Shown here: positions 12,977 through 36,486 of the stretch, one piece after another
Layout of the letters: each line of letters begins with the position of its first letter
Position numbering within the stretch: position 1 is the stretch's first letter
Virus record (IMG/VR): IMGVR_UViG_3300020428_000029
Location: 1-39,738 of that record
DNA: 39,738 nt
Source: a virus
Taxonomy: Duplodnaviria; Caudoviricetes
Strand: one strand, 5' to 3'
Notes under the pieces: generated by a model
What the model saw: only the letters and a program-made list of their open reading frames with translations
What the model was told of the DNA's origin: nothing
Database searches by the model: none
Program-made: the position numbers and the translations under genes

Positions 12977-13219
12977 ATGAAGGAATTGAAGCTAGGCCAC
13001 CGCGTCAAGAATACGAACAGAGATGTTAACGGAATGGTGGCTGGCGCTCAACAAGCTAATGGAGTTAATAGCGTCCTAGTGCCAGTGGTTCTGGAGGGTT
13101 CGACTCGTAGAGAACTCTGGCCTATCGATCAAATTAAACTTCTTCCAAAATCAAAACAGCTTATCGCTCTTGGTGGAAAATTTAATCCACCCAAAGGCTA
13201 TCCACTTCACCTTAAATAG
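12977..13219 (+). CDS. hypothetical protein
   Basis: 80-aa ORF heading an operon; TTGTCA-16-TACTGT promoter-like sequence upstream. Confidence 0.7.
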   Translation: MKELKLGHRVKNTNRDVNGMVAGAQQANGVNSVLVPVVLEGSTRRELWPIDQIKLLPKSKQLIALGGKFNPPKGYPLHLK

Positions 13220-13221
13220 TC

Positions 13222-13899
13222 ATGGCACAATGGGCACTTCCTCCTGACCTTCACTCTCAGATAGAAGGAGGACCTTTATGTTTTCATTCCGATCACAATA
13301 TTGGAGCGAAAGATGGATTGATTCCTCGTTATAAAGATAGTCATGCCTGTGTTCGATGTGTTGCAGCTTTAACTGAAGGACGTCTTGCTTTAGATGTTCA
13401 TCGAATTGAAAAGATTCATCGCCGTAGATTTTTAGAATTCTGGTCGTTTGTTGAGATGGGCGGAGCAAATGATTGTTGGCCCTGGAGAGGCAAGTATCAC
13501 ACACGCTGTTCATCAAGTTACTTTCCTATACCGAGATTCTGGGGCAAAGGTCGCCAGTATTCAGCATCAAGAGTTGCCGCTTGGTTGACATGGGGAGATA
13601 TCGGAAGACTTCCAATTAAAAATATCTGTGGTGACAATAATTGCTGCAACCCTCTGCATATAAAAATCAAAGGGGTTCCACATTTCTACCATCGAAGAAA
13701 ACTCGACACGATGGATATCGACTTCAGTACTAGGAAATTAGAAAGCGAAACTTCACTCTTCTTAGAAACTACAGCAACGAAAGATCCTAAAACTTTTGAA
13801 CGTTTAGAGAAGACTAATAAAATCTGGATCAACTGGCGCATGGGCAGCGATGAGCCACTTAACTCGCTTATGGGGAGTCCTGCTGACGAGAATAAGTAA
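13222..13899 (+). CDS. HNH/His-Cys-box-like protein, predicted catalytically inactive
   Basis: FWSFV...DCWPWRG...ASRVAAWLTWG...IKNICGDNNCCNPLHI matches phage HNH_3 scaffold; AHR>ASR and V.H.C>IKNIC. Confidence 0.7.
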   Translation: MAQWALPPDLHSQIEGGPLCFHSDHNIGAKDGLIPRYKDSHACVRCVAALTEGRLALDVHRIEKIHRRRFLEFWSFVEMGGANDCWPWRGKYHTRCSSSYFPIPRFWGKGRQYSASRVAAWLTWGDIGRLPIKNICGDNNCCNPLHIKIKGVPHFYHRRKLDTMDIDFSTRKLESETSLFLETTATKDPKTFERLEKTNKIWINWRMGSDEPLNSLMGSPADENK

Positions 13900-13932
13900 G
13901 ATATAAAGGAGACGTAATTATTACTGATATCC

Positions 13933-14883
13933 GTGGCGACACTTGCCGAAATTGCTAAAGCCAAGCTTGCCGAGAAATCATCGGACTACGCGAATCCCTG
14001 GTATGACCCAGACAAAGGTCATGGCGGTAGAAAAGGAGACTATTTCGGATATGACGACGACGTTTATAACAAATTTGTAGCAGCGGATCAGGATGGCGAT
14101 GGAATAATTTCTAAGAACGAATATAAAACCTGGGATAGTCTTGAATACGATATCAAGAATGACGATCACGCTCCTTTCTACAAAGGCAAGTGGGATAGAG
14201 GAGCTGCTAGACAAAGAGCACTTTTACGTGGACTCTCTAGAAATAATTTATCGCTAGAAGATAGCAGCGTTCTTGCTCATCACGGAATCTGGCAAGACGA
14301 TCAAACTGGTGATCTTTTTGGTGCTACCGCTTACGACAGTAGTTTATGGGGCAGAAGAGGAGATGATAACTTATCTTCCTATGCTGGGCATTTCGAAAAA
14401 GACGACGAAAATTTATCTAATACATATTTTGATTATGCAAACTGGGGCGATGATGGAGTCCCTGTTTACAAATATGCTTACCAAGGAGATTGGACTCCTG
14501 CAGAACAAGAAGAAGAAGTCACCGCTTGTCCAGCAGGTCAGGTAAGAGGAACTTCTGGAGCATGTATTGATGACAATGAATATGCAGAAGATCCATGGGA
14601 AGAGCCAAAGAAAACTCCAAAAGCATTAGTTGATAAGAGAACTGATTGGGATGCTAACTGGGACCCTAATCGTGCAGGAATTACTCCAGTAGAGCAAGGA
14701 AGCATTCCCTTCAATACGGCTGACATGTTGAATGACAAATCCAATCAGTCATCAGCATCAAATTCTATTACTGGTGGAAAATTTTCAAACTTCCTGGATG
14801 GCTACCAAGAGAGCAGCAATACCAAGAAGCAACTCGAAAGTTTACTTAGAGCGACTGGGTTCTCTGGTGGTGGACTTTCCTAA
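13933..14883 (+). CDS. acidic protein with EF-hand-like motif
   Basis: DQDGDGIISKNE canonical EF-hand loop; CPAGQ...C motif; D/G/Y/W-rich. Confidence 0.7.
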   Translation: MATLAEIAKAKLAEKSSDYANPWYDPDKGHGGRKGDYFGYDDDVYNKFVAADQDGDGIISKNEYKTWDSLEYDIKNDDHAPFYKGKWDRGAARQRALLRGLSRNNLSLEDSSVLAHHGIWQDDQTGDLFGATAYDSSLWGRRGDDNLSSYAGHFEKDDENLSNTYFDYANWGDDGVPVYKYAYQGDWTPAEQEEEVTACPAGQVRGTSGACIDDNEYAEDPWEEPKKTPKALVDKRTDWDANWDPNRAGITPVEQGSIPFNTADMLNDKSNQSSASNSITGGKFSNFLDGYQESSNTKKQLESLLRATGFSGGGLS

Positions 14884-14916
14884 ACTATTAACAAGATCAC
14901 TAACTAATTATTAATA

Positions 14917-15531
14917 ATGACATCTTCTGCGGAACAAGCTAAAGAAAGAACGGTTGAGTGGCTTAAAGGCGTCTATCAATCTGAACTAGGTCGAGAACTT
15001 GGTGATGAAGGTAAAGACTACTGGACGGCAGATATACATGATCGTGGTCAAACTCAAGAACAAGTCTTAGCGAATATAAGAAGGAGTAACGAGTACAAAG
15101 GATATCAAAGAGGTAAAGGTTCTACACCAGCACCAGGGCCAGCTCCATCTCCAAGTCCAGCTCCAAGCCCAAGTCCAGCACCTTCTCCTTCACCAGCTCC
15201 ATCCCCAAGTCCAGCTCCAAGTCCAGCTCCCTACAAATACACAGCCATTGATGCTGCAGCTATTGCGGGTAATGCAATGACTGATGATTACTATTCTCGC
15301 TTCCTTCCTCAGATGAGAAAAGAAGTCATGCTTGGCATTGATGAGATAGGAGCTTCAGATCGTTATCACTCTGATCGCTGGGAAGGTAAGCCTCCTGAGT
15401 TTGATGATCCAATGGAATTATTCAATAAATACAGAAGTAGTGGTGTCGGAGGAAGCGGTACCAACGCCACAACGATTGAGTCTTTGCAGCAACGGATTAA
15501 AGATCTAGAAGATAAATATTCAGTTAATTAG
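14917..15531 (+). CDS. DUF4214-like domain protein with Pro/Ser/Ala linker
   Basis: VYQSELGRELGDEGKDYW...RGQTQEQVLANIRRSNEY followed by (PAPSPS)n. Confidence 0.75.
   Translation: MTSSAEQAKERTVEWLKGVYQSELGRELGDEGKDYWTADIHDRGQTQEQVLANIRRSNEYKGYQRGKGSTPAPGPAPSPSPAPSPSPAPSPSPAPSPSPAPSPAPYKYTAIDAAAIAGNAMTDDYYSRFLPQMRKEVMLGIDEIGASDRYHSDRWEGKPPEFDDPMELFNKYRSSGVGGSGTNATTIESLQQRIKDLEDKYSVN
15127..15231 (+). repeat. coding tandem repeat (PAPSPS)x4 plus partial copies
   Basis: 18-bp units with synonymous variation. Confidence 0.9.
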
Positions 15532-15972
15532 ATGACACGCTTTGCTGGAGACACAATAGGGATCAAATCCCTTTCAGACATTACAGCGGATAGGTCTACG
15601 GAACTTAGTGATTTTGCTAGACGCCTTGCTGTTATGGAAGGAGGAGGAGCTGTAGATCCTGAAGATGCTGAGAGATCGAAGGAGAGAGAGATTCTCAGGG
15701 AATTATATGCTGCACAAATAGCAGAAGGCTTTGATATTCCAACATCAATGCGTTATAACCCTGCGGCTACTCCAGAAGATTGGGATAGATACGACTTTGC
15801 TTTTGGTGAAATAGATAGACCTGCTTTCGGAAAAGGAGGGGGGTCGGCACGAGCAAGAGCTGGACAGGCAGCAAATAGAGCGGCAGCAAAGGCAAGGGCT
15901 AATTCAAGAGGACGCGATGGAGGTAAACCATCAAGAAGTCAAAAAGCAGGAGCTAAACGTCGCGGCGGATAA
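15532..15972 (+). CDS. hypothetical protein with basic Gly/Ala/Arg tail
   Basis: Abuts previous stop; acidic N-half, R/K-rich C-tail. Confidence 0.7.
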   Translation: MTRFAGDTIGIKSLSDITADRSTELSDFARRLAVMEGGGAVDPEDAERSKEREILRELYAAQIAEGFDIPTSMRYNPAATPEDWDRYDFAFGEIDRPAFGKGGGSARARAGQAANRAAAKARANSRGRDGGKPSRSQKAGAKRRGG

Positions 15973-16030
15973 TTAACCCACCAATATCAATTTATATTTG
16001 TTACGTTATGTGAAGCATCTTACATAATGC

Positions 16031-16231
16031 GTGACTGAGCAACTAACTGACGAAGAGTGGATCAAGCAGACTTATCGGGACGAACTTCGTAGAGAACCTG
16101 ATGAGATTGGCCTTGATTATTGGATTGCTGACATCAAAGACAGAGGTCAAACAAGAGATCAAGTCCTAAGTAATATTCGATTGTCGCCTGAATATGAAGC
16201 ACTGCAAAACCAGTTGTCGTCTGACTCTTAA
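16031..16231 (+). CDS. stand-alone DUF4214-like domain protein
   Basis: YRDELRREPDEIGLDYW...RGQTRDQVLSNIRLSPEY; paralogous to N-terminus of 14917..15531. Confidence 0.75.
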   Translation: MTEQLTDEEWIKQTYRDELRREPDEIGLDYWIADIKDRGQTRDQVLSNIRLSPEYEALQNQLSSDS

Positions 16232-16251
16232 AACTAATTGAGTGTCGGGGC

Positions 16252-16280
16252 TTGCAATCTGATTAATAGCGAACTAACTT
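16252..16280 (+). promoter_or_regulatory. sigma70-like promoter candidate
   Basis: TTGCAA-17 nt-TAACTT upstream of ThyX-like gene. Confidence 0.4.
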
Positions 16281-16305
16281 CTGGTTAGATCCGCTTAGAT
16301 GGGTA

Positions 16306-17142
16306 ATGCCCGATCTCGACACGAAAAAGAAGAAGCCCTCATTAAAGTCGGTTCCTTTCGAAAGATTAGATGTTAAAAAGATCAGTGGTACTGAGGACCC
16401 TCAACGAATTTTGTTGTTGGTTCACAGAACTTTGACTGAAGCTGAAGACCCTATGGATGGTCTTGTTGATAATCAAGACGAAACCAATCTTAGTTATTTA
16501 CCAGAAGATAAATGTGCTTACGAGTTTATTGATGCTTGCGAAACTAAGCCGTTAATGACCTTTGCTGAATATGCTCCATTTGATCATCCTCATCTGACAC
16601 TAAGATTAAGGGCTGATCAATTTACTATTGGCGAATTAAAAGATCGAGCGAAAGGTTTGGTGTTTACAAAACAGTCTTTATTCAATACAGCAGATAACTA
16701 CAGTAGACCAGTTATTGATCATAAGATGCCTCTTTCAGAGGTGATCTATTCTCGTGTTCCAGGAAATTATCCTCAAGATAATTCAGACAGATTTAATTGG
16801 AATCAGGAAGATCACGACGAGCAATTAGCACACGGCTACTCAAGCTGTATCGATTACAATATCTCCCGCAATCGAGGTGTACCAATAGAAGCCGCATTGC
16901 AGTCACTACCACAAAATCTATTGATTAACGCTACAGTAACAGGGAGTCTCGGTGATTGGCTTCGCTTCCTATGTAGCTCTACTTCTCTTAATGGCTCCTA
17001 TGAGTTGAGATCCATGTACGGAAAGATTGCTGCTCAGGTTAGAAAGTTTGCTCCAGAGATTTATAAATGGTGGTATTCAGGAATTCAAGATCAGGAATCA
17101 GCCGAACCAAACAGTAGGTTTGCGTCCAGCATGAGTCTTTGA
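16306..17142 (+). CDS. thyX: ThyX-like protein with degenerate active site
   Basis: PFDHPHL (cf. PlEHp.i), ELKDRAKGLVFTKQSLFNT (cf. QlrtHRvgisFdvQSmRYT), GVPIEAALQSLP (G...E.AR..LP), SYELR, APEIYKWW. Confidence 0.7.
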   Translation: MPDLDTKKKKPSLKSVPFERLDVKKISGTEDPQRILLLVHRTLTEAEDPMDGLVDNQDETNLSYLPEDKCAYEFIDACETKPLMTFAEYAPFDHPHLTLRLRADQFTIGELKDRAKGLVFTKQSLFNTADNYSRPVIDHKMPLSEVIYSRVPGNYPQDNSDRFNWNQEDHDEQLAHGYSSCIDYNISRNRGVPIEAALQSLPQNLLINATVTGSLGDWLRFLCSSTSLNGSYELRSMYGKIAAQVRKFAPEIYKWWYSGIQDQESAEPNSRFASSMSL

Positions 17143-17351
17143 ATATGTTAAAAGTTTGTCTTTTAAAAGATCTATATTCATCTGTTGCTCATCTAATAGA
17201 TGAATTGATTGAAGATCCCGAATACAGAAAGTATGTTCCACTGCTTTCCAGCTTGGAATATATCTTGGATGCCATTTACGTTTCTATCTCGAACGAATAT
17301 TTAAATGGCAAGGCCACAGCCTCAAGAACTGCTAGTAAAGTTCTTCCCTGA
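17139..17351 (+). CDS. hypothetical protein
   Basis: Fills gap between neighbours with overlaps at both ends. Confidence 0.5.
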   Translation: MNMLKVCLLKDLYSSVAHLIDELIEDPEYRKYVPLLSSLEYILDAIYVSISNEYLNGKATASRTASKVLP

Positions 17352-17760
17352 GTTAATTGACAAAAAAGTTTCTTCCAAGAATAAAGAAGCTTCTAAAGAA
17401 TTAAATGTCCGAATATGTGAAGCAATAATTTCGGACCTGATAAATAAATACGACAGCCTTTATAGCTACATGGGTGAAGGCGCATTAATCGTTAGGCTTG
17501 GTAGTCGTCACGGCAAAGATAATATAGACAACAATAATTACATCAATCGATTTACTCTTGAAAAAGACTTAAGAGACGCTCGCGAGAACAAGGACGAAAC
17601 AGTTGCTGAATTTTTCACCGACGTAATTAACAAAGTAAAAGCAACAGATGTCAACGAAGAAATCTGTATTGTTTTAGTCGATAATTCAGGAGGGTCAGCC
17701 TGCGTTATTCCTAGGGATAACCCTGCTAAACGAATATCAGCAATGATGGATGGACTGTAA
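17305..17760 (+). CDS. hypothetical protein
   Basis: 151-aa ORF in operon. Confidence 0.75.
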   Translation: MARPQPQELLVKFFPELIDKKVSSKNKEASKELNVRICEAIISDLINKYDSLYSYMGEGALIVRLGSRHGKDNIDNNNYINRFTLEKDLRDARENKDETVAEFFTDVINKVKATDVNEEICIVLVDNSGGSACVIPRDNPAKRISAMMDGL

Positions 17761-17762
17761 AC

Positions 17763-18386
17763 ATGTCCACCACAAGGGTTGATCGATGTGATCTCGCTCC
17801 TCCAAGCAGCGTAGTTCAAGGTGCTCGTTCTGTACTTGGGGCAATCGACCTCGACCCTTATTCGACAAAAGATATAAATCGATTAGTCACAGCAGCTCGT
17901 TATTACGATCGTGATGAGGAGTCGTTAGACGACATCATCAGAAAACAATGGGATGTTCCTGGAGAAGGACGTGTCTTTGTTGGTGCCCCTGCAGGAGCTG
18001 GCTTAACAAGAAGATTACTTAATAAGACATTAATTGAATACAGGGCAGGACGTATTAGTCATGCCGTTCTTTATATCGGTCACAACGAGGCGATCATCCG
18101 ATCACCTTGGCTTTGGGATTTTCCTATTTGTTTTCCCTTCAGGAGATTGAGACCTCAATGGTGGGATGACGAGCTGGAAGTCTTTCGTGGAATATCCCCA
18201 GCCGATTGGTCAGCCGTGGCTTATTTGCCACCGCCTGAACCTAATCAATTTCACACCATGCTTTCCAGGTTTCACAACGCTTTTAGTCCAGTAGGACGAG
18301 TTGTATTCAATGAATTTAGTGGTGAATCTGATTGGTCTGACTCTTATAAAGCGACCTTCGGTAAGGACTACACCTATAGGGGATAA
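17763..18386 (+). CDS. phage N6-adenine DNA methyltransferase-like protein lacking NPPY
   Basis: PP..V..ARSVLGAIDLDPYS...N..V.A..YY...W...GRVFVGAPA; the family reads GRVFlNPPY at this position. Confidence 0.75.
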   Translation: MSTTRVDRCDLAPPSSVVQGARSVLGAIDLDPYSTKDINRLVTAARYYDRDEESLDDIIRKQWDVPGEGRVFVGAPAGAGLTRRLLNKTLIEYRAGRISHAVLYIGHNEAIIRSPWLWDFPICFPFRRLRPQWWDDELEVFRGISPADWSAVAYLPPPEPNQFHTMLSRFHNAFSPVGRVVFNEFSGESDWSDSYKATFGKDYTYRG

Positions 18387-18387
18387 G

Positions 18388-18798
18388 ATGAGATCTTTTA
18401 AAGCACCAGACGGAAATGTTTATCTAGGAATTAGATCTGTTGTCTACGATTCCTGGATCATGTGGAACGATGTTTTACCTGACCCACAAGATAAGCAACC
18501 ACTAATGACTAAAGATATATATGAGAACATAACTGAACTTGGTCTTCGCATTCACAAACTGCATCAGTCAATGCCTAACTATAAACAAATGACTGAGTCA
18601 CCTTTTAACTTCGTTCTTTGGTGGGACCCTGACGATGATGACGATGATTGGAGTCGAGGAAAGGTCTGTCGTTTTATGATTAATGATTATTCTTCAGAAG
18701 ATATTTTGTTCTATAGCAAGTCTAAAAAAGGAAACAAGTTACTAATTAAACCCATGACAAGCAGACTTGTAGAAGCTCGTATTATCCCTAAGCCTTAG
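18388..18798 (+). CDS. possible degenerate peptidase M15-like protein
   Basis: IMWNDVL (cf. FTWaEat), ENITELG (nI..lA), PFNFVLWWDP (Pf.itSWYRP), WSRGKVCRF (H..G.AiDF); zinc ligands absent; ATG 18388 preferred. Confidence 0.45.
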   Translation: MRSFKAPDGNVYLGIRSVVYDSWIMWNDVLPDPQDKQPLMTKDIYENITELGLRIHKLHQSMPNYKQMTESPFNFVLWWDPDDDDDDWSRGKVCRFMINDYSSEDILFYSKSKKGNKLLIKPMTSRLVEARIIPKP

Positions 18799-18908: not shown

Positions 18909-19093
18909 TGGTAGCACTCACAGATGTTTGGGTGTTCTCCAGTCGCACAATATTGTTGCCAAAAGCCTGCTGTTGATTCACAGGTTTGTCCATCTGGTTT
19001 TCCTGGACCACTCCAATTAATCGCTCCCATACCACCATTGGTACATCCGATCATTCCGAAAATGAGTGGTGAAAGTAATAACAATCTCATCAT
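18905..19093 (-). CDS. small Cys-rich lipoprotein
   Basis: MMRLLLLSPLIFGMIG-C lipobox-like; four further Cys; ATGA overlap at 19093. Confidence 0.65.
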   Translation of the reverse strand: MMRLLLLSPLIFGMIGCTNGGMGAINWSGPGKPDGQTCESTAGFWQQYCATGEHPNICECYQ

Positions 19094-19341
19094 GTTCCTA
19101 AGTCCCTCTTCGCTTCCCATGCCTCTCTTCTTGCTCCATATTCATCTAATGAATCTCTGAATATTTTACTCTCTTCTGCTTGTTCAGCAGACCTACGATT
19201 CAATACTTGGATACCACTTCCACCATCAATACTCTTCCTTCCTCCTGTGCTTCCACCATAATTTTGAGCCGAATGGTTAGCTCGTCTCGCTTTCTCTAAA
19301 TACTTCCTAACCAATTTGTTCTTAGGATTACTGAATTTCAT
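19090..19341 (-). CDS. hypothetical protein
   Basis: 83 aa, AGGAG RBS. Confidence 0.65.
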   Translation of the reverse strand: MKFSNPKNKLVRKYLEKARRANHSAQNYGGSTGGRKSIDGGSGIQVLNRRSAEQAEESKIFRDSLDEYGARREAWEAKRDLGT

Positions 19342-19636: not shown

Positions 19637-20095
19637 TTGGTGAAAACACGCTTTGATCTCTTGCCCTTTAGCTCTCTTGGAGACATCGCTGATGTTCTCA
19701 GTATTGGCGCTCAGAAGTACAGCCCTAATAATTGGTGCAGAGGTACCGAATGGAGTAGGTATTTCGCAGCCTTATGCAGACATATATTCGCATGGTGGCA
19801 AGGAGAAGATCGAGATGCTGAGACAGGAAAGTCTCACCTCGCCCATGCTGGATGCTGCTTGCTCTTCCTCATGGAGTACGAACGAAATACTTGGGGAACC
19901 GATGACCGATTCACTGGACCAGACGGTGAAGTCTTTACCAAAGGAGATGGATTAGGCAATGATAATTTTGAATTCGATTATGAGTTATATCAAGAAGTTT
20001 TGAAGTGTCATCCGTTGGATGATTTGCAGTCTTTGAAGTTCGCTACTGAGTGGAGTCCAGCTCAAGTTGATCGCATTGATTTGGGCTTGGATTAA
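19637..20095 (+). CDS. dATP/dGTP diphosphohydrolase (DUF5664)
   Basis: RFDLLP, VL..GAQKY..NNW..G..WSRY.AA..RH, GEDRD.ETG.SHLAHA. Confidence 0.88.
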   Translation: MVKTRFDLLPFSSLGDIADVLSIGAQKYSPNNWCRGTEWSRYFAALCRHIFAWWQGEDRDAETGKSHLAHAGCCLLFLMEYERNTWGTDDRFTGPDGEVFTKGDGLGNDNFEFDYELYQEVLKCHPLDDLQSLKFATEWSPAQVDRIDLGLD

Positions 20096-21258
20096 TGATG
20101 AAAATATCGATTATTGGAGCGGGTAATGCTGGTTGTTTTACAGCATTACAGTTAGCGGATTTCGCTAAGGATGTTGGACTAGAGCTAGTCATTGAGATTA
20201 TCTATAACCCTGAGATTCCACCCCAGCGTGTAGGTCAAGCAACCTTCCCTCACCATCCATATCTTCTTTGGAATACATTGCCCAAAGAATTTAATTGGCA
20301 ACGTAATCAGGTCGGAGCAACTCTCAAAACAGGCATCCATTATGAGGGTTGGGGAAAGAAAAATAAGCAGTTTTTCCATCCTTTTCCAGCACATCAAACA
20401 GGGATGCATTTCTATCCTCCCAGTCTTCAAGATGTTGTTATTAACTCAGGTCTTTTCGATATTAAAACTGGCGATGTCAAAGACTATTCAGAGATTGATT
20501 CTGACTTTATCTTCGATTGCAGAGGCAAGCCGAAAGACATGGAGGGTGCTTATACCGATCTTGTTAATCCAATTAATACTTGTCTTTTATGTAAGCCAAA
20601 ATGGGATACCTCAGTAAATACATTTACACGAGCTGTAGCTACTCAAGATGGCTGGAGTTTTATTTTACCTGCTGACCCAGACTCACCATCGAGTCAAGGT
20701 TGCTTGGGCTATTTATACAACAGAGATATTTCCCCTAAGGCAGACGCACTTCGTAATCTGAAAAATAAATTCGATGTTTATTTAACTGATTATTTGGAAT
20801 TCGATAACTACGTGGCCAATGAACCAGTTATTGATAACAGAATTTTTCTTAACGGAAATCGCCTCTATTTCTTAGAGCCTTTAGAAGCAACTGCTATCTA
20901 TATCTACACAGAGTGGGTATTGCAGTGCTGCTCGTTAATTACTTCCTACAACAAGAAACAAGATGTATCGCATTTAAAAGAATATATCCACAACCTCGTA
21001 CATCAAGTCGAACGATTCATTCTTTGGCATTACCAGAATGGTTCTCAGTACGATTCTGATTTTTGGAAATATGCCCAGAACTTAAAGATCGACAAACCAG
21101 ATCCCAAGTTCACAGAGCTGATTGAAAACCTTGAAACCACTTCATTGCCTGTGATTAAACAAACTGAGCAATCACATCGATGGCCAGGAGGTAATTACGG
21201 CGTCTGGGCGCCTTCTAGTGGCAAGTACTGGTTAGAAGGAGTGACACAAGAACTATGA
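20095..21258 (+). CDS. flavin-dependent tryptophan-halogenase-like protein
   Basis: GAGNAG FAD motif, VGQAT, ATLKTGI (catalytic Lys position), DFIFDCRG, GWSFILP, FLEPLEAT. Confidence 0.85.
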   Translation: MMKISIIGAGNAGCFTALQLADFAKDVGLELVIEIIYNPEIPPQRVGQATFPHHPYLLWNTLPKEFNWQRNQVGATLKTGIHYEGWGKKNKQFFHPFPAHQTGMHFYPPSLQDVVINSGLFDIKTGDVKDYSEIDSDFIFDCRGKPKDMEGAYTDLVNPINTCLLCKPKWDTSVNTFTRAVATQDGWSFILPADPDSPSSQGCLGYLYNRDISPKADALRNLKNKFDVYLTDYLEFDNYVANEPVIDNRIFLNGNRLYFLEPLEATAIYIYTEWVLQCCSLITSYNKKQDVSHLKEYIHNLVHQVERFILWHYQNGSQYDSDFWKYAQNLKIDKPDPKFTELIENLETTSLPVIKQTEQSHRWPGGNYGVWAPSSGKYWLEGVTQEL

Positions 21259-26252: not shown

Positions 26253-26480
26253 GTGACGTTATCTTTGCTGTCAAAGAAGGAGACTTGCGAAGCACTATGT
26301 GTTTCAGAAAGAACCTTTACCAGATTTTTCAACAGTGGTGTTTTGCATCATGGAAATCATTTTGTATATAAAGATCCCTTAAACCCAAACAGCCACAAGC
26401 TTTATAAGATTGACAGAGTAAAGCAGATTTACGAGGAGACACCTACGTCTTTGAAGCGCAGAGTGAGGAAAGTTCGATGA
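26253..26480 (+). CDS. excisionase/MerR-like HTH DNA-binding protein
   Basis: LLSKKETCEALCVSERTFTR...G.L..G.H winged HTH, 75 aa, basic, near integrase. Confidence 0.7.
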   Translation: MTLSLLSKKETCEALCVSERTFTRFFNSGVLHHGNHFVYKDPLNPNSHKLYKIDRVKQIYEETPTSLKRRVRKVR

Positions 26481-26647
26481 CAAGTTCATTTGGTCCTGAC
26501 CATAAGCCACGCAAACCTCAGTTCTCAAAGTCTGGGATACCTCTGCATATGCTCGGAGATATTGAATATATGGAGTTTGCTATGGAGTTTCCTGAAGAGG
26601 TTATCGATATTGACGATGACAAAATGAATGCTGAAGTTTGCAAATGA
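26477..26647 (+). CDS. hypothetical protein (56 aa, not in ORF track)
   Basis: ATGA overlap with xis-like gene; MTSSFGPDHKPRKP... Confidence 0.5.
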   Translation: MTSSFGPDHKPRKPQFSKSGIPLHMLGDIEYMEFAMEFPEEVIDIDDDKMNAEVCK

Positions 26648-27011
26648 TTTTATTGCTGCTATAAAGAATTACGATTTGATTCACACTATGAGCAAAAAAA
26701 TTGAAGTCGAAAATGCTTTAATCCAGTGCGCTATGTCTGTTGCTGGTCGAAAGAACAATAATAAAGTTAAATCCCTAAAAGGTGGTGAAAAAATTGCACG
26801 CCTCTTGTTGTTGGCTCAGGAGGAGCAAGACAAACACACTAAAAATGTTGGTGATGGAATTGATGATGCCAGACGTCGCCAAAGACTTGCAATTCGAACC
26901 GTTTCTCGATTAAGCAATATTTGTACCGCATATCATTTCGTATCTAACTGCAAGGACGATTCAGAAAATAATTCATTCAGAAGATGGCTTTCAATGAGAA
27001 ATATTAATTAG
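26628..27011 (+). CDS. hypothetical protein
   Basis: 127 aa, convergent with integrase. Confidence 0.6.
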   Translation: MLKFANDFIAAIKNYDLIHTMSKKIEVENALIQCAMSVAGRKNNNKVKSLKGGEKIARLLLLAQEEQDKHTKNVGDGIDDARRRQRLAIRTVSRLSNICTAYHFVSNCKDDSENNSFRRWLSMRNIN

Positions 27012-28270
27012 AGAGCTGCAGCCTGAAAATTCTTGATAAAGCTATCTCTCAACTTTTCCTTATCAATCCATTTCAAATAATGTTTTTGATGGACTGGTAA
27101 GGAATGACCCATTGCTTTGGCCACTTTGGCTTCATCAATATGACTCCATGCTTCTTCGGAATGCATGATCACTGCATATGAATGCCTCATGTCATATGGG
27201 TTCAAATTTAATAATCTTCTGGACATCTTTCCACCACCAGTAGGAACTCGTCCAATTAATGGATTTGGAACTTTGCCATAGATTTGATTCGTAAAATATG
27301 CGCCCAATATTTGATTGTTATCTCCAATTCCACGATCTTCATTATTGAGTAATTCCTTTAGCTCAGTTCTGTTCTCAATATCCTTAATAACTGGTTTGCA
27401 TCGATTCCATAGTTCCTTTTTCATTCCATTCATTCGAGTTATCAAACGATATTTCTCTAGCCAAGAAGGGAATACAGGCCAAACAATATGATCTTTGATT
27501 GATTTGGTTAGAGCGCCTGGGACAGTAATGAATCCATCGGACTGGTGATACACATACCAGAGTTCATGGTTTCGAAGTCCATAACAAACCATCATGGCAA
27601 CGCACCATGTTTCGAATGGATACTCCTTCTTGTGTTGATCCAGCCATTCTTCAGCTAGTTCTTTGTTCGTAATAGCTCTGATATTGGCTTCTTCTATGTG
27701 TTCCTTATATTTCGTATTTCTATGACCGTGATAGACCCTCCGTTCTTTTGCAAGCAAATCTTTGTTTAACCAGTCAGGATCATCTTCACCTTGTTGAGTT
27801 AATGCTTTCCTGAATAATTCCAAAGAATCGCATCGATTGATAAAACCTGAACTTAATTTTGGATCTACTTCATACAACCATTTACGAATTTCCACCCAAT
27901 CCATCCCAACTTCTTGCTTCATTAATTTATTTAAATGTCCAATTGGATTGCTTCTTGCTGAACCTTTGCATCTATTAGTAATGAAATCCTTAATCGTTGG
28001 AGCAATATCTTTCCAGTAACTATGTTTAATTTTGTGGTCTAAAGTTGCGAACCAATCGCCATGGCCCACAACCTGAATTTTCTCCCAAATTCTTGCTAAA
28101 TCTACAGCGTTATCTGTTCTATGTGGCTTGCAATTAATTCGTACTCTTTGTCCCGCTAGAGAATCCCTGACATAAATAAAAGGACTCTTCTTCTGAACAT
28201 AGAATTTATAACGAAAGTTATAAGATTCTTGGCGAGCTAAAAGACGTTCGAGAGTCAGTAAATTGTTCAT
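27008..28270 (-). CDS. int: tyrosine recombinase / phage integrase
   Basis: YGLRNHE (R), TK (K), PYDMRHSYA (YxxR variant), MGHS...HY (H, Y); adjacent to tRNA-derived att core. Confidence 0.9.
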   Translation of the reverse strand: MNNLLTLERLLARQESYNFRYKFYVQKKSPFIYVRDSLAGQRVRINCKPHRTDNAVDLARIWEKIQVVGHGDWFATLDHKIKHSYWKDIAPTIKDFITNRCKGSARSNPIGHLNKLMKQEVGMDWVEIRKWLYEVDPKLSSGFINRCDSLELFRKALTQQGEDDPDWLNKDLLAKERRVYHGHRNTKYKEHIEEANIRAITNKELAEEWLDQHKKEYPFETWCVAMMVCYGLRNHELWYVYHQSDGFITVPGALTKSIKDHIVWPVFPSWLEKYRLITRMNGMKKELWNRCKPVIKDIENRTELKELLNNEDRGIGDNNQILGAYFTNQIYGKVPNPLIGRVPTGGGKMSRRLLNLNPYDMRHSYAVIMHSEEAWSHIDEAKVAKAMGHSLPVHQKHYLKWIDKEKLRDSFIKNFQAAAL

Positions 28271-31041: not shown

Positions 31042-31641
31042 TTAGTCTTCTTTTGGGGATTGTCCAGAGTCTTGATGTCCTTCTCCTTTCTTTGCATATT
31101 TAGGAGGGGAATCCATTTTCCTTCTGCCCCATAGAACCAAGGAGGATCGAGTTCCTTTTTCAACAGGTTCAACTGCATGCATTAATAAGGATGGGAAAAC
31201 TATGATTCGTCCCAGCTTTTCTTCTGGTAAAGAATTTTTTAAATTTATAAACTTTAAATTTCCACCTTCGTATTTATTTCTAGGTGATAAAACGATTGAT
31301 GCTGATATATCACGGTCAATATCAAAGCCAGGGTCCATGTGAGGATTATAAAAATTACCCACTCCATACTCTGCGTATTGAATTGGTTCAACTTCCTGTA
31401 TCGGAAATTTAAAAACTTCCTTACAAATATGAAAATAATATCTCAAAGCTTTCTTGATGCTCTCTCTAATTTCAGGAGGACAACCGTCTTTAGGAATAAA
31501 ACAATTTTTAGACTTCCTGTCCTTGCACTCCACACCTCCTTCTACTAAGGACGTCTTGATTTTATCTCTGCAATATTTTCTAATGAGACGACATTCCTTG
31601 AAACTAAGGCAGTTATCAGCCCAAGCGTAATCGGCAATCAT
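31042..31641 (-). CDS. 2OG-Fe(II) oxygenase (prolyl-4-hydroxylase/PKHD-like)
   Basis: FYNPHMD (HxD), YEGGNL, FPS...HAVEPV..G.R.SLV.W. Confidence 0.9.
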   Translation of the reverse strand: MIADYAWADNCLSFKECRLIRKYCRDKIKTSLVEGGVECKDRKSKNCFIPKDGCPPEIRESIKKALRYYFHICKEVFKFPIQEVEPIQYAEYGVGNFYNPHMDPGFDIDRDISASIVLSPRNKYEGGNLKFINLKNSLPEEKLGRIIVFPSLLMHAVEPVEKGTRSSLVLWGRRKMDSPPKYAKKGEGHQDSGQSPKED

Positions 31642-32429
31642 TCTTTAATACTCTCCTCCTCGTCTGAGTTTTCATTAAATCGTTTATAGATGATTTCTTC
31701 GTCTTCAAAATACAAATTGAAGCTAACAATAATCCTGTCCTCACCTGACTTATTAGGCTCTGATTTATGAGGTAACCATGCTGGGAATAGTACCAATTCT
31801 CCTGGCCTAGGCTCGACCCTATAGACAGTGAAATAAGGATTTAAATCAGGATTACATCCTTGAGTCATTGTCTTTGTTGCCCAAGAAGGATCTTGGAAAA
31901 CGATTTCACCACAACCTGGTTCAGCTTTTGCGTAGAAGACTCCACTCCATCTGAAATTGGAATGAATGTGATAAGGAACAAAGCCATCTTTGGGGTAGAT
32001 CGTTGTCCACATATTGCTAATCTTCATGCTGTCTATAAAGTCAAAATATTGTTCACCGTTAGAGCCCATTTGCCCTGGTTGAAAAGCATCCCTAAGGAGC
32101 ATGCCTTTACAACCTTTTAGTAGTTCATCTGCAATAGGTTGCCAAGGCTTTTCTCTAAGTAAATTTCTCGAATAAAAGGAAGTGACACCATGTTTATCCC
32201 AGTCTTTTCTGTCTGCAGATCTTCCTGATTTATTCCATTCTTCAGAAACTAATCCTTCTATGTCATCACTGTTCTCTTTAAAATAATAAGCTTGTTTTAT
32301 TGCATCATCACAAAGACTATCGTTTTGAGTCGATGCCACAAATATTGGAGTACTAAATAAATCTCTACGAAAAAATCCAGTTCTTAAAGCCTCGTCTGGA
32401 GTCAGAGCCGCATTATTAATTACAGTCAT
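31638..32429 (-). CDS. putative 2OG-Fe(II) oxygenase (TIGR02466-like)
   Basis: LFSTPIF, HIH...SGVFY, F.DP, LVLFPAWLPH..EPN....RIIVSFN. Confidence 0.88.
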   Translation of the reverse strand: MTVINNAALTPDEALRTGFFRRDLFSTPIFVASTQNDSLCDDAIKQAYYFKENSDDIEGLVSEEWNKSGRSADRKDWDKHGVTSFYSRNLLREKPWQPIADELLKGCKGMLLRDAFQPGQMGSNGEQYFDFIDSMKISNMWTTIYPKDGFVPYHIHSNFRWSGVFYAKAEPGCGEIVFQDPSWATKTMTQGCNPDLNPYFTVYRVEPRPGELVLFPAWLPHKSEPNKSGEDRIIVSFNLYFEDEEIIYKRFNENSDEEESIKE

Positions 32430-32757: not shown

Positions 32758-34431
32758 TTACCATTCAATAAGTACATAGCCAGGACCTCCGTCACCGCCA
32801 CTTCCATTGTAGGAACTGCCAGAGTAGTGACCTGATGCCCCGCCCCCTCCTGCTCCTATGCCGCCAGGTCCAGAACATCCGTAGTTAGTACAAGAACCTC
32901 CTCCTCCTAATGCGCCCCCAGCGCCTCCTGCGCCACCGTTTCGAATAGCAGCCTCAGTTGTATAAAAAGTATTTGTCCATCCAAATGCCATGTCTGATGG
33001 ATTCCATTTATGAACATCATCTTTAGTGGTCCAGCTACCATTTCCATTACTTGTAACGCAGGCTGCTCCAGCACCACCTGCTCCAGCACCCCCTTGGCCA
33101 GCGGGATATGATTGGTCATTGCTTCCATTAGGACCACTGGATTTGCAACCTGTTCCAGCACCGCCGCCACCTTGGCACCTACCTAGTATCCCATTAAACA
33201 TTTTTGCTGGATAAACCGACACTCCAGATATTGTTGCACCACTTCCTGCTTCGAAACCTGTTCCAGCACCGCCGCCACCGCTACCAATACCAAGTTGTGC
33301 TTCATATTGGTTATAAGTTACTCCAGACGGTGAAGGATTACCAGCACCACCACCACCAGAAGTTGCTGTTACTTCGCCATCGCCGTAGCGTGCGCCATTC
33401 ATCCTCTTGAAATTGCTTTCCCAATTGGCGTATTGATCACCAAATTGCTTTCCATATGAAGTGTCATCTGTGTTGACACAGTCATATGTATAGCCATTTA
33501 TAGACGCAGAGCCAGAAGTACCTTCTCCACCCTTTCCATACGGTTGACTTGAAGTAAAAGCTGGATTGCTGTCATTATCTTGTCCTGTATATCCAGCCCC
33601 AGCCGAGCCACCACCACCGCCAGACCATGCATGATAGGTACTTGCAGTTTGAGATCCAAAGGCTCTAATACCTTCTCCTCCTATACCGCCTCCACTGGCT
33701 CCAGTGAACGAATAGCCGTATCCAGGAGATCCGTGTCCACCTCTAAATCCATTACCTTTAAAACTTCCTGCACTGCCGCCACCACCACCGCCGTAGCCCT
33801 CAGGACCCCAACCGATTGCGTTGCTATTTGCATTTCCTCCGCTTCCACCATTATTGGTAATGCTACCACCCGACAATGCTGACCCTGAAACAGTTCCAGC
33901 ACCACTATTAGAGGCACCACCACTATTTGGAGGACCACCAGGTCCACCTGGAGCTTGAACATACAAAGTACTTGAGCCGCCGTCACCGCTGCTCATCTCT
34001 ACTATTGTTTGCTGTCCACCAGCACCAGTACCTGATCCTTGCGACCTGTGTATGCCATACCCACTTTTTCCGACCTGAACATCTAATACTTGACCTGCTG
34101 TAACGTTATATTCTCCACTAGAAAATGCACCGCCAGCTCCACCACCTGAACCATGATATGTGCCGTTATATCGACCACCACCACCACCTGCTCCAATGGC
34201 AGTAATTCTAATTTTTGATACTCCGCTTGGAACTGTCCAAGTAGTATTTTGAACCATACGGTTCACTGCTACTCCGTTAATTGTTCTCTGTGACTGTGTT
34301 ATCTCAGTATGATATGATGCTGGACCAGAGTGCTCTCCGTAGAAGTCCTGCCATCTCTTAAATTCACGACCGTCGGAGACACCTCCTACTCCACCGCCAC
34401 TGTCAATTAACGCCGACAAAAGGATAGACAT
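32758..34431 (-). CDS. glycine-rich tail fibre / receptor-binding protein 2
   Basis: WTVPSGVSKIRITAIGAGGGGG ... GGDGGPGYVLIEW Gly-rich domain signature. Confidence 0.8.
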   Translation of the reverse strand: MSILLSALIDSGGGVGGVSDGREFKRWQDFYGEHSGPASYHTEITQSQRTINGVAVNRMVQNTTWTVPSGVSKIRITAIGAGGGGGRYNGTYHGSGGGAGGAFSSGEYNVTAGQVLDVQVGKSGYGIHRSQGSGTGAGGQQTIVEMSSGDGGSSTLYVQAPGGPGGPPNSGGASNSGAGTVSGSALSGGSITNNGGSGGNANSNAIGWGPEGYGGGGGGSAGSFKGNGFRGGHGSPGYGYSFTGASGGGIGGEGIRAFGSQTASTYHAWSGGGGGSAGAGYTGQDNDSNPAFTSSQPYGKGGEGTSGSASINGYTYDCVNTDDTSYGKQFGDQYANWESNFKRMNGARYGDGEVTATSGGGGAGNPSPSGVTYNQYEAQLGIGSGGGGAGTGFEAGSGATISGVSVYPAKMFNGILGRCQGGGGAGTGCKSSGPNGSNDQSYPAGQGGAGAGGAGAACVTSNGNGSWTTKDDVHKWNPSDMAFGWTNTFYTTEAAIRNGGAGGAGGALGGGGSCTNYGCSGPGGIGAGGGGASGHYSGSSYNGSGGDGGPGYVLIEW

Positions 34432-34490
34432 ATCAATCGATAGCTTGTATCTTTACCTTATTTTATTTTAATGAAAAATTATTTATAGAA

Positions 34491-34766
34491 TTATGAATCG
34501 ATCGCTACCCTATAGCCTTCACCTTGAATCTTGACGTCTTCGCCCAATGGTAGGTCTTCTCCTACTACCTTACCGTCGACTATTTCAGGAATCGCTACTT
34601 TTGTGAACTTCTTAGATGCGGAATCGTAAAGATCCCCCCTCTTAATCGTTTTCGTACACTTGACATATGTAGTTCCAACAACCTGATTAACAGTTGGGTC
34701 GGTAGCAGTAGTTGTATCGACGATATGGAATACTTTATCGTCACGAATTTCAGCGTATAAAGTCAT
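34491..34766 (-). CDS. small partner of Gly-rich fibre 1 (assembly chaperone-like)
   Basis: YAEIRDDKV...GDLYD....FT pattern typical of genes following Gly-rich fibres. Confidence 0.65.
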   Translation of the reverse strand: MTLYAEIRDDKVFHIVDTTTATDPTVNQVVGTTYVKCTKTIKRGDLYDSASKKFTKVAIPEIVDGKVVGEDLPLGEDVKIQGEGYRVAIDS

Positions 34767-34779
34767 GGATTAATCCTCC

Positions 34780-36486
34780 TTACCATTCAATGAGTACATA
34801 GCCAGGGCCGCCAGTGCCGCCGTGACCGCCATAACTAGTGTTGAAATGGCCATTACCCCCGCCGCCTCCTGCGCCTATACCGCCAGGGCCGCCTATTCCG
34901 TAGTTACCACAGCCGCCGCCGCCGCCGCATGCACCTCCAGCACCTCCCAATGGCTGCATTTTTCCGAAGTTCTGACCAACGCTACCTTCTCCGCGTCCAT
35001 TGTATGTAGCACCAAATACTGCTCCATCAATCGAGTAAGTAAACGCCATATTTGTTGTATCCCATTGCCATGAGCTGTACCAATCTCGATTGCTGTACTG
35101 CTGGTTTGTCGTGTATGACGCTGCGCCACCACCACCTGCTCCTGACCCGCCTTCTCCTCCAGGATAGGAATTATTACCAAATTGGTGATTCTCAGTACAT
35201 GCTCCTGCTGCTCCAGCGCCTAAGAGTCTTCCTAAAACTCCATTAAACATCTTTGTTCCATACGTCGCACCTCCAGCAGCAGTACTGCCACCGCCGCCAC
35301 CGCTGCTACCGCCTTGTAATCCACCTTCGTATGATCCTCCACCACCGCCACCTAGTCGGCTTGCATTTGTTTGTTCTGCGACACCGTCACCAAAGCGTGC
35401 GCCTTTCATTAATTTCCACCAATCCCAATTTCCATTGGTGTCCCAAGGCCACTGAGCATTAGGGTCCCATCCTTTGTGATATGTGCCTTTGTTGACGTTT
35501 GAACCATCTAATTTTGGCTCTTCATGATCTGTGTAACCAAGAGCACTAATTTGGTCTGTAAAGCCTTCTCCACCGTGTGACTGAGGGCTGCTGTCCGAGT
35601 CTGATCCATCAACTCCAGCACTTCGGGTACCGCCTCCGCCTCCACCGTGTGACCAAGCACCACTTGGTCCATTATTACTTCCTGCGTCACCCCCTCTGCC
35701 TCCTATGCCTCCTCCGCCACCTGAGCAGAACGAATATCCTCCACTATTACTAGCATTGCCTCCTCTGTTTCCATTGCCTTTATAGCTACCTGCCGATCCA
35801 CCACCACCTGCACCGTATCCCTCAGGACCGAATCCGAATGAACGACCACTACCTACTCCACTCTGTCCACCTGTATGGTTTATTTGGCCTGTACCAATTG
35901 CAGCACTACCAGATATATTCCCTCCAGGAGGACTAGGAGGGGAACTACCATTGTTTTCTCCGCCGTAAGCTCCAGGAGACAACATTGATAAAACACTATT
36001 GCCACCGTCTGGATTGCTCATGACGACACTTGTATTGGTCCCAGGACTACCAGTAGATGTACTATCAGACCCCTGACCTCCTCTACCTACTTGAATATCA
36101 AGAGTTTGACCTGCGCTGACATTAACTTCTGAACTGACGAATGCAGCTCCTTGGCCACCGCCACCACCGTGATAATGGGTGCCTCTTCTTGAGCCACCAC
36201 CACCACCACCGCCTAGCAGTGTGACTCTGATCTTAGAAACTCCAGTAGGTACAACCCAGTTAACGACAGCTCCTTGTGAAGATTTCCTTTGTTGAGGACC
36301 TGTACCAGTTCCTCCACTTTCATTTCCACAGTCTCTAGTGCTTCCAGGTATGTAACTGCCAGCTTGTTCAACCTCACCGTACCAATCTTGGAAGTTTTTA
36401 AATTCTCTATTATCTGTTGGCCCACTTTCACCACCACCACCAGACGACGTGTTTTTACCTATTAAGGTCTTTAAACTTTGAGCCAT
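34780..36486 (-). CDS. glycine-rich tail fibre / receptor-binding protein 1
   Basis: WVVPTGVSKIRVTLLGGGGGGG ... GGTGGPGYVLIEW; paralogue of 32758..34431. Confidence 0.8.
   Translation of the reverse strand: MAQSLKTLIGKNTSSGGGGESGPTDNREFKNFQDWYGEVEQAGSYIPGSTRDCGNESGGTGTGPQQRKSSQGAVVNWVVPTGVSKIRVTLLGGGGGGGSRRGTHYHGGGGGQGAAFVSSEVNVSAGQTLDIQVGRGGQGSDSTSTGSPGTNTSVVMSNPDGGNSVLSMLSPGAYGGENNGSSPPSPPGGNISGSAAIGTGQINHTGGQSGVGSGRSFGFGPEGYGAGGGGSAGSYKGNGNRGGNASNSGGYSFCSGGGGGIGGRGGDAGSNNGPSGAWSHGGGGGGTRSAGVDGSDSDSSPQSHGGEGFTDQISALGYTDHEEPKLDGSNVNKGTYHKGWDPNAQWPWDTNGNWDWWKLMKGARFGDGVAEQTNASRLGGGGGGSYEGGLQGGSSGGGGGSTAAGGATYGTKMFNGVLGRLLGAGAAGACTENHQFGNNSYPGGEGGSGAGGGGAASYTTNQQYSNRDWYSSWQWDTTNMAFTYSIDGAVFGATYNGRGEGSVGQNFGKMQPLGGAGGACGGGGGCGNYGIGGPGGIGAGGGGGNGHFNTSYGGHGGTGGPGYVLIEW

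Follow-up and report, generated by a model that had tools for sequence, protein, structure and literature searches.

Enzyme-derived genes without canonical catalytic residues form a conserved block in cyanophages related to Synechococcus phage S-EIV1

Here we describe a block of enzyme-derived genes between positions 13,222 and 18,798 of the Caudoviricetes sequence IMGVR_UViG_3300020428_000029, a marine metagenomic stretch of 39,738 nucleotides that is called the window throughout. Four genes of the block are related to HNH endonucleases, flavin-dependent thymidylate synthase (ThyX), phage N6-adenine methyltransferases and M15 peptidases. Their products keep the folds of these families and have lost the canonical catalytic motifs, and the conservation of the sequences points to exaptation rather than decay. 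Three of the four, together with the orphan genes 12977 and 17305, belong to an operon beside the primase gene that is conserved in relatives of Synechococcus phage S-EIV1. We tentatively favour the reading that these proteins are non-catalytic DNA-binding or scaffold parts of phage replication or gene control, which position, conservation and analogy suggest.

Folds and missing catalytic residues

The original prediction, made by eye from the sequence, was of four uninterrupted, co-directional open reading frames (ORFs) with substitutions at catalytic positions. All four are present on the plus strand, and family and structure searches recover the expected folds: a His-Me finger, ThyX, a Dam-like N6-methyltransferase and an M15A peptidase.

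The HNH derivative matches PHROG 1872 and 3593 (E = 8e-10 and 3e-7), in agreement with a beta-beta-alpha core and a zinc-binding loop. It shares the Cys/His zinc loop (C-x4-C-C-N-P-L-H) with the His-Me finger endonucleases (HNH_3 / zf-His_Me_endon). Unlike these it carries an extra N-terminal zinc finger, and it is a core, slow-evolving gene rather than a mobile homing gene. The predicted zinc sites are C20/H25/C43/C46 and C85/C136/C141/H146, and the eight putative ligands are kept in 120/120 homologues (residue tallies for this protein refer to the best 120 of 174). ASR (115-117) replaces AHR and N134 replaces His, as had been predicted. N134 stands at the end of strand 1, which we take to be the general-base position from the spacing in I-PpoI and HNH_3; His occupies it in 45 of the 120. 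At the canonical spacing for the metal ligand stands F155 in the window, and F or Y in 120/120. AHR and the helix Asn are absent from nearly all copies, the His of the general-base position is present in some and absent in others, and S-EIV1 already lacks the usual nuclease motifs. The protein is basic (median pI 8.7). One distant branch has a helix-turn-helix (HTH)-like domain within the protein (E 2e-4, below the cut-off). At L066:3883-5010, and likewise in L069 and L080, the protein is about 380 aa long with an extra N-terminal His-Me-like motif and an HTH-like domain.

The methyltransferase derivative matches no Pfam family itself but aligns with NPPY-bearing PF05869 proteins, and 4/81 members of its family, the window protein not among them, match PF05869 at E <= 0.1. 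Methylases of Nostoc/Anabaena phages are among its closest relatives with an annotation. The model (pLDDT 93) has PCIF1/CAPAM as its top structural match (Z 8.8), then ErmC' and M.TaqI. The Rossmann fold, motif I (DLDP, here DLDPYS) and a downstream Trp are common to this protein and the phage Dam-like enzymes. Among the best 119 of 224 homologues D29, D31, N39 and W63 are conserved without exception, a PWxWDFPxC block is near-invariant, and motif IV starts with Asn in only two. The predicted change of this motif from NPPY to GAPA (74-77) is confirmed; the corresponding residues are FPPN in S-EIV1 and, in further distant branches, FPPT or SPKG. The derivative differs from PF05869 enzymes in the lineage-wide loss of NPPY, the lack of a ParB fusion, a conserved C-terminal extension and the orphan gene nearby.

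That orphan, 17305, encodes a candidate partner of the dead methyltransferase, judging from its distribution. It is present at 68 of the 88 loci with a methyltransferase match and lies directly upstream of the methyltransferase derivative in 66 of these 68. It was beside none of the 14 NPPY-bearing methyltransferases, and the catalytic motif IV (N/D)PP(Y/F) occurs in 0/68 copies with a 17305 neighbour. From the window through to S-EIV1 the 17305 stop and methyltransferase start codons touch, and in S-EIV1 the pair overlaps by one base. The 17305 family has 202 representatives at E <= 0.001, and a Pfam scan of 29 of them found no shared family. P0333, a protein of 746 aa, has a BRCT domain followed by a C-terminal 17305-family domain and may be a chimera or a true fusion.

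The M15 derivative also lacks a Pfam match. Its model (pLDDT 91) best matches the Streptomyces Zn DD-peptidase 1LBU (Z 9.5, root-mean-square deviation 3.0 over 107 residues; next match Z 5.9), and its TM scores against phage M15A domains are 0.66-0.67. W88, R95 and E129 stand where His, Asp and His are expected, as predicted. This mapping was made by hand against the intact M15A of related endolysins and the secondary structure of the model; automatic alignments were weak and discordant, with a profile comparison probability of 0.14 and another register chosen by MAFFT. Of the Zn triad (H-x6-D ... H), the motif H..G.A.D is found in 0/59 copies of the derivative, which also occurs in a branch at 16-20% identity, likewise without ligands. 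The fold is thus shared with Peptidase M15A (1LBU and the PF08291 domains of cyanophage endolysins); the differences are the missing His/Asp/His triad (59/59) and the existence as a stand-alone gene in the replication region. Endolysin M15A domains are the likely source family. Three near-complete relatives encode an endolysin with intact M15A, so the derivative would be redundant as a lysin; this endolysin (L088:11309-12466 on the minus strand, L092, L098) joins a lysozyme to the M15A domain.

Searches of PDB sequences with profiles of the HNH, methyltransferase and M15 derivatives and 17305 returned nothing significant. Foldseek searches of the PDB with the methyltransferase and M15 models gave no match at E <= 0.001, the top rows being the correct superfamilies. 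Atlas searches with the M15 derivative and 17305 gave no usable match.

The ThyX derivative matches PF02511 (E 5e-7, 30.2 bits against a cut-off of 24.8) and PDB ThyX chains. It scores 26.8 bits against TIGR02170, whose equivalog cut-off is 87.9, and its orthologue in sister clades scores 137.5. Fold and direct descent link it to active ThyX (T. maritima TM0449), from which it differs in the loss of RTHR, SxRY and the C-terminal Arg. The predicted substitutions are found, with KDRA (112-115) in place of RTHR and SLFN (124-127) in place of SxRY, and the dUMP (deoxyuridine monophosphate)-binding Arg was not found. The ThyX motif, which we take to be RxHR-x7-SxRY, was compared with T. maritima ThyX by way of a live orthologue. 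The three elements are invariant in 18/18 live copies and variable in 22 dead ones, in which scaffold residues, among them H94, R150, Y155, W218, E233 and P250, are kept 22/22.

It is unlikely that one or more of the derivatives remain enzymes of a non-canonical kind, the methyltransferase derivative perhaps transferring another group from SAM or using residues of 17305 and the HNH derivative perhaps using H154/H157 as metal ligands. Such activity would fit the near-invariance of the S-adenosylmethionine (SAM) motif I and the PWxWDFPxC block, the conservation of H154 and the presence in S-EIV1 of a SAM decarboxylase and a glycosyltransferase near the primase. PacI, a His-Me finger, cuts without the His (PMC5714182; this source, PMC4738411, 10.1101/325100 and 10.1101/2022.11.22.517515 are cited from the portions available). 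However, the canonical positions vary freely with no single fixed new residue. No base-modification pathway was recognised among the 67 proteins scanned in Pfam from the relative G001, in which 145 ORFs were called.

Purifying selection and neutral decay

The ratio of nonsynonymous to synonymous substitution (dN/dS) between the window and its nearest relative is 0.025 for the HNH, 0.034 for the methyltransferase, 0.046 for the M15 and 0.139 for the ThyX derivative; the dCMP (deoxycytidine monophosphate) deaminase and primase of the same pair give 0.047 and 0.058 (dS 0.56-1.7). Codon-model estimates (omega) in the dead-ThyX clade are 0.036, 0.060, 0.066 and 0.127 in the same order; for comparison, dCMP deaminase has 0.031 and the second HNH gene, which is intact, has 0.230. 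All four genes are therefore under purifying selection. In the HNH and methyltransferase derivatives conservation reaches 95% or more at dozens of positions, but the canonical catalytic residues are variable; this has the appearance of a fold kept and catalysis released.

Neutral decay of formerly useful enzymes is very improbable. The one copy that resembles decay is a ThyX remnant (L010:3903-4349, minus strand) that is inverted relative to the block and has lost about 90 internal residues. Against decay, every pair that could be measured has a dN/dS far below 1 (at most 0.66, in one M15 pair), and no internal stops were found in the extracted orthologues; this alternative is largely refuted. 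The nearby dCMP deaminase, exonuclease, second HNH and integrase have motifs that are intact by eye, in line with the original view that decay is not genome-wide. A contig from another study shows 0 differences from the window across 16764-18448, which argues against an assembly error there.

The conserved operon and its neighbours

The features of the block are listed in Table 1. Its apparent contiguity as a cluster of four did not hold: the ORFs are real, but a 2.3-kb insert and two orphan genes intervene. The insert carries DUF4214 repeats, a PAPSPS repeat and an EF-hand-like motif, and it is different or missing in relatives. The M15 frame is taken from the ATG at 18388; a TTG frame from 18301 overlaps the methyltransferase gene.

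Table 1. Features of the gene block in the window
Feature	Coordinates	Strand	Description
Orphan 12977	12977..13219	+	80 aa; first operon gene; no Pfam/PHROG family
HNH derivative	13222..13899	+	His-Me finger; PHROG 1872/3593
Variable insert	13933..16231	+	Four low-complexity or DUF4214 genes; outside the conserved operon
ThyX derivative	16306..17142	+	Derivative of flavin-dependent thymidylate synthase; PF02511
Small ORF	17145..17351	+	Close relatives only
Orphan 17305	17305..17760	+	151-aa acidic protein; neighbour of methyltransferase derivative
Methyltransferase derivative	17763..18386	+	Derivative of PF05869-type (phage Dam-like) N6-adenine methyltransferase
M15 derivative	18388..18798	+	M15A/Hedgehog-DD-peptidase fold without Zn-ligand triad

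The distant branch L054-L057 has neither ThyX nor the insert, and its genes run primase, 12977, HNH derivative, 17305, methyltransferase derivative and M15 derivative, contiguous in L054 and L056 and in L057 as far as the contig extends. The window has this order plus ThyX and the variable DUF4214 insert. The ancient unit is the five-gene operon beside the primase. Judged by synteny across loci, 17305 and the methyltransferase derivative form the tight unit, followed by the M15 derivative, with the HNH derivative looser and ThyX apart.

A somewhat unlikely alternative, which partly overlaps the reading we favour, is that the four proteins are unrelated exaptations that are neighbours only through stable core-gene order. 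For ThyX this holds under any reading. Differing loss ages, the rearrangement in L010-L012 and the split in S-EIV1 agree with it. The touching codons of 17305 and the methyltransferase derivative speak against it, as do the loci L011 and L012, where 17305 and the methyltransferase and M15 derivatives remain together in spite of a shuffled order.

ThyX as a younger and separate case

The original prediction treated the four genes as one module. A single co-evolving module is contradicted by ThyX, which is live in 24 of 52 loci, where the other three lack canonical motifs, and dead in 28 (one of these copies is cut by a contig end). ThyX is also not in the block of L054-L057, and the M15 derivative was not found in S-EIV1. 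The losses are staggered, the methyltransferase and HNH motifs being gone by S-EIV1 and the loss in ThyX coming later.

In a five-gene tree (35 taxa after dropping 18 near-duplicate loci) the dead L010-L012 group with the live L038/39/42 (bootstrap 82). A ThyX tree of 23 rows places all dead copies on one side (support 77/48). The trees disagree, and activity may have been lost once or twice. Relative to the methyltransferase derivative, ThyX tree length is 2.4 in 13 dead-ThyX taxa versus 0.84 in 12 live ones, a rate about 2.8x faster after the loss. A second thyX or thyA was not found in 5/5 records, three of them with a dead ThyX. A working enzyme may have entered the block and then lost catalysis in the clade of the window; the host would in that case supply deoxythymidine monophosphate (dTMP), and a second role, in protein binding, would maintain the fold. 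A T4 precedent for a thymidylate synthase with a moonlighting role was sought in the literature, where the matches listed were genome papers only. The live ThyX at L015:5806-7545 is 578 aa long; its GHYG/LEH motif is interrupted by about 340 aa that resemble an intein (Cys start, ...SGN-Cys end).

Counter-defence by decoys, sponges or dominant-negative subunits of host enzymes, as originally suggested, is decidedly unlikely; examples would be a SAM-binding methyltransferase decoy against restriction-modification or a ThyX derivative that joins host ThyX tetramers. ThyX is a homotetramer with active sites at subunit boundaries (PMC5954106) and a cyanobacterial control genome carries thyX; these points, the kept SAM motif and the faster evolution of dead ThyX would suit such a role. 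Against it stand the low omega, the staggered losses and the core, syntenic position of the genes beside the primase, which is not patchy. PADLOC matched 0/7 proteins with a library of defence, not anti-defence, proteins. Poisoning host dTMP synthesis would presumably also hurt a phage without another thymidylate synthase.

A possible role in replication or gene control

The original interpretation survives in part. Conserved pseudoenzyme-like proteins are present, and of the roles first proposed an exapted structural or regulatory one fits best; the coordinated four-part module does not. In the reading we favour, the HNH derivative would be a DNA-binding regulator that folds round its two zinc sites and does not cut, similar to Smad MH1. 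The methyltransferase derivative would retain SAM and nucleic-acid binding by way of the motif I surface, without the usual adenine methylation; such binding is plausible because motif I is kept. This derivative would likely pair with the acidic 17305 protein. The M15 derivative, whose likely origin is an M15A domain of the endolysin type, would serve as a scaffold for binding, lysis being left to the intact lysozyme-M15A endolysin.

Several observations weigh against this proposal. L010-L012 have a rearranged block. In S-EIV1 the M15 derivative was not found, and about 10 kb, spanning the circular origin, separate the HNH derivative from the 17305/methyltransferase pair; the five genes are therefore not all obligate partners. 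Synteny of core genes is expected in phages anyway, and the 66/68 pairings of 17305 are not 66 independent events because the loci are related. The methyltransferase derivative is neutral (median pI 6.7) and not obviously DNA-binding. In the HNH derivative H154, one residue from F155, is invariant (120/120) and H157 is common; both could bind metal at a non-standard site. Contigs from RNA libraries cover genes and spacers evenly and therefore give no indication of transcription. A promoter scan gave 16 sites versus 28.5 in shuffles, i.e. fewer than in shuffled sequence.

A bolder version, which we regard as a long shot, is that 12977, 17305 and the HNH, methyltransferase and M15 derivatives form one phage machine, mostly made of dead enzymes, in which a DNA-recognising zinc finger and a SAM-pocket pseudo-methylase would act as a complex to control replication or late transcription. 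Mitochondrial initiation factors derived from methylases offer an analogy for the methyltransferase derivative, which might link the lytic programme to host SAM. The dead ThyX would be a newer subunit in mid-recruitment.

That the proteins are virion or assembly components is quite unlikely. Orthopoxviruses provide the model, with 16 inactivated enzyme derivatives (10.1101/2022.11.22.517515). The closest intact methyltransferases are often ParB-fused, a type tied to terminase loci and packaging (PMC4738411), and DUF4214 genes occur both in the block insert and amid the structural genes of G001. The block of G001, however, lies in a run of replication genes, on the strand opposite to the capsid and terminase genes and about 29 kb or more away from them.

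Relation to known systems

Exaptation of enzymes as scaffolds is already documented for poxviruses and eukaryotes. The orthopoxvirus proteins of Mutz et al. (10.1101/2022.11.22.517515) are likewise conserved viral proteins with disrupted active sites, judging from the portion available; the present case differs in concerning a bacteriophage, in having three such genes in one operon and in having live and dead ThyX in sister clades. Inactive methyltransferase folds act as partners in METTL14 and the DIRS1 methyltransferase domain (PMC4738411). Smad MH1, a His-Me finger without the His, has retained its binding to DNA and works as a transcription factor (PMC5714182); the HNH derivative resembles it in that the catalytic His is mostly missing, and kinship is considered at the superfamily level only. 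Literature searches, which covered few subscription papers, found no description of these cyanophage genes or of such a phage operon, and the available portions of PMC12695635 and PMC6157547 contain nothing on them.

These dead-enzyme genes are core genes of a widespread cyanophage lineage and carry the database label hypothetical. Because it scores above the Pfam cut-off, the ThyX derivative would wrongly be tallied among the working auxiliary metabolic genes, and ThyX offers a rare natural before-and-after series across sister clades. The idea is testable, since the cultured S-EIV1 has three of the five operon genes.

Phage lineage and other features

Among 50,697 phage records the sole match of the HNH-like gene of the window was S-EIV1 (KJ410740.1), which has homologues of the HNH derivative, the methyltransferase derivative (AHV82250.1) and 17305 (AHV82251.1), all annotated hypothetical. 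Near-complete relatives of the window phage are 82-94 kb long. G001 carries an integrase, a terminase, a capsid gene and a gene that is psbA-like by eye. S-EIV1 is the closest cultured relative of an uncultured cyanophage lineage (10.1101/325100, portion available); the window lineage resembles these BAC21E04-related phages and may be identical with them. For the winged HTH-like gene that lies upstream of 17305 in S-EIV1, neither the window nor any of three near-complete relatives has a homologue.

A genome scan found the block only in contigs of metagenome-assembled genomes (MAGs) from non-cyanobacterial taxa, and found no host or prophage. The MAGs that contain these contigs (L101-L106) are labelled Flavobacteriales, Methanobacteriota, Phycisphaerae and Pirellulales. 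The contigs are probably viral sequences in mixed bins, and this would account for the 'Euryarchaeota hypothetical' names given to the methyltransferase derivative.

In the window a small basic gene with a GGSTGG motif (19090-19341, minus strand) is convergent to the M15 gene and is present in most relatives. An excisionase-like HTH gene opposite a tyrosine integrase (26253-28270) suggests a temperate lifestyle. A dATP/dGTP diphosphohydrolase domain, a tryptophan-halogenase-like gene and two 2OG-Fe(II) oxygenases (19637-21258 and 31042-32429) are usual cyanophage extras. At 32758-36486 there is a tandem pair of paralogous Gly-rich tail-fibre-like genes that share their ends. In G001 (L088:7919-9221) LAGLIDADG-type ORFs stand head to head with the major capsid gene.

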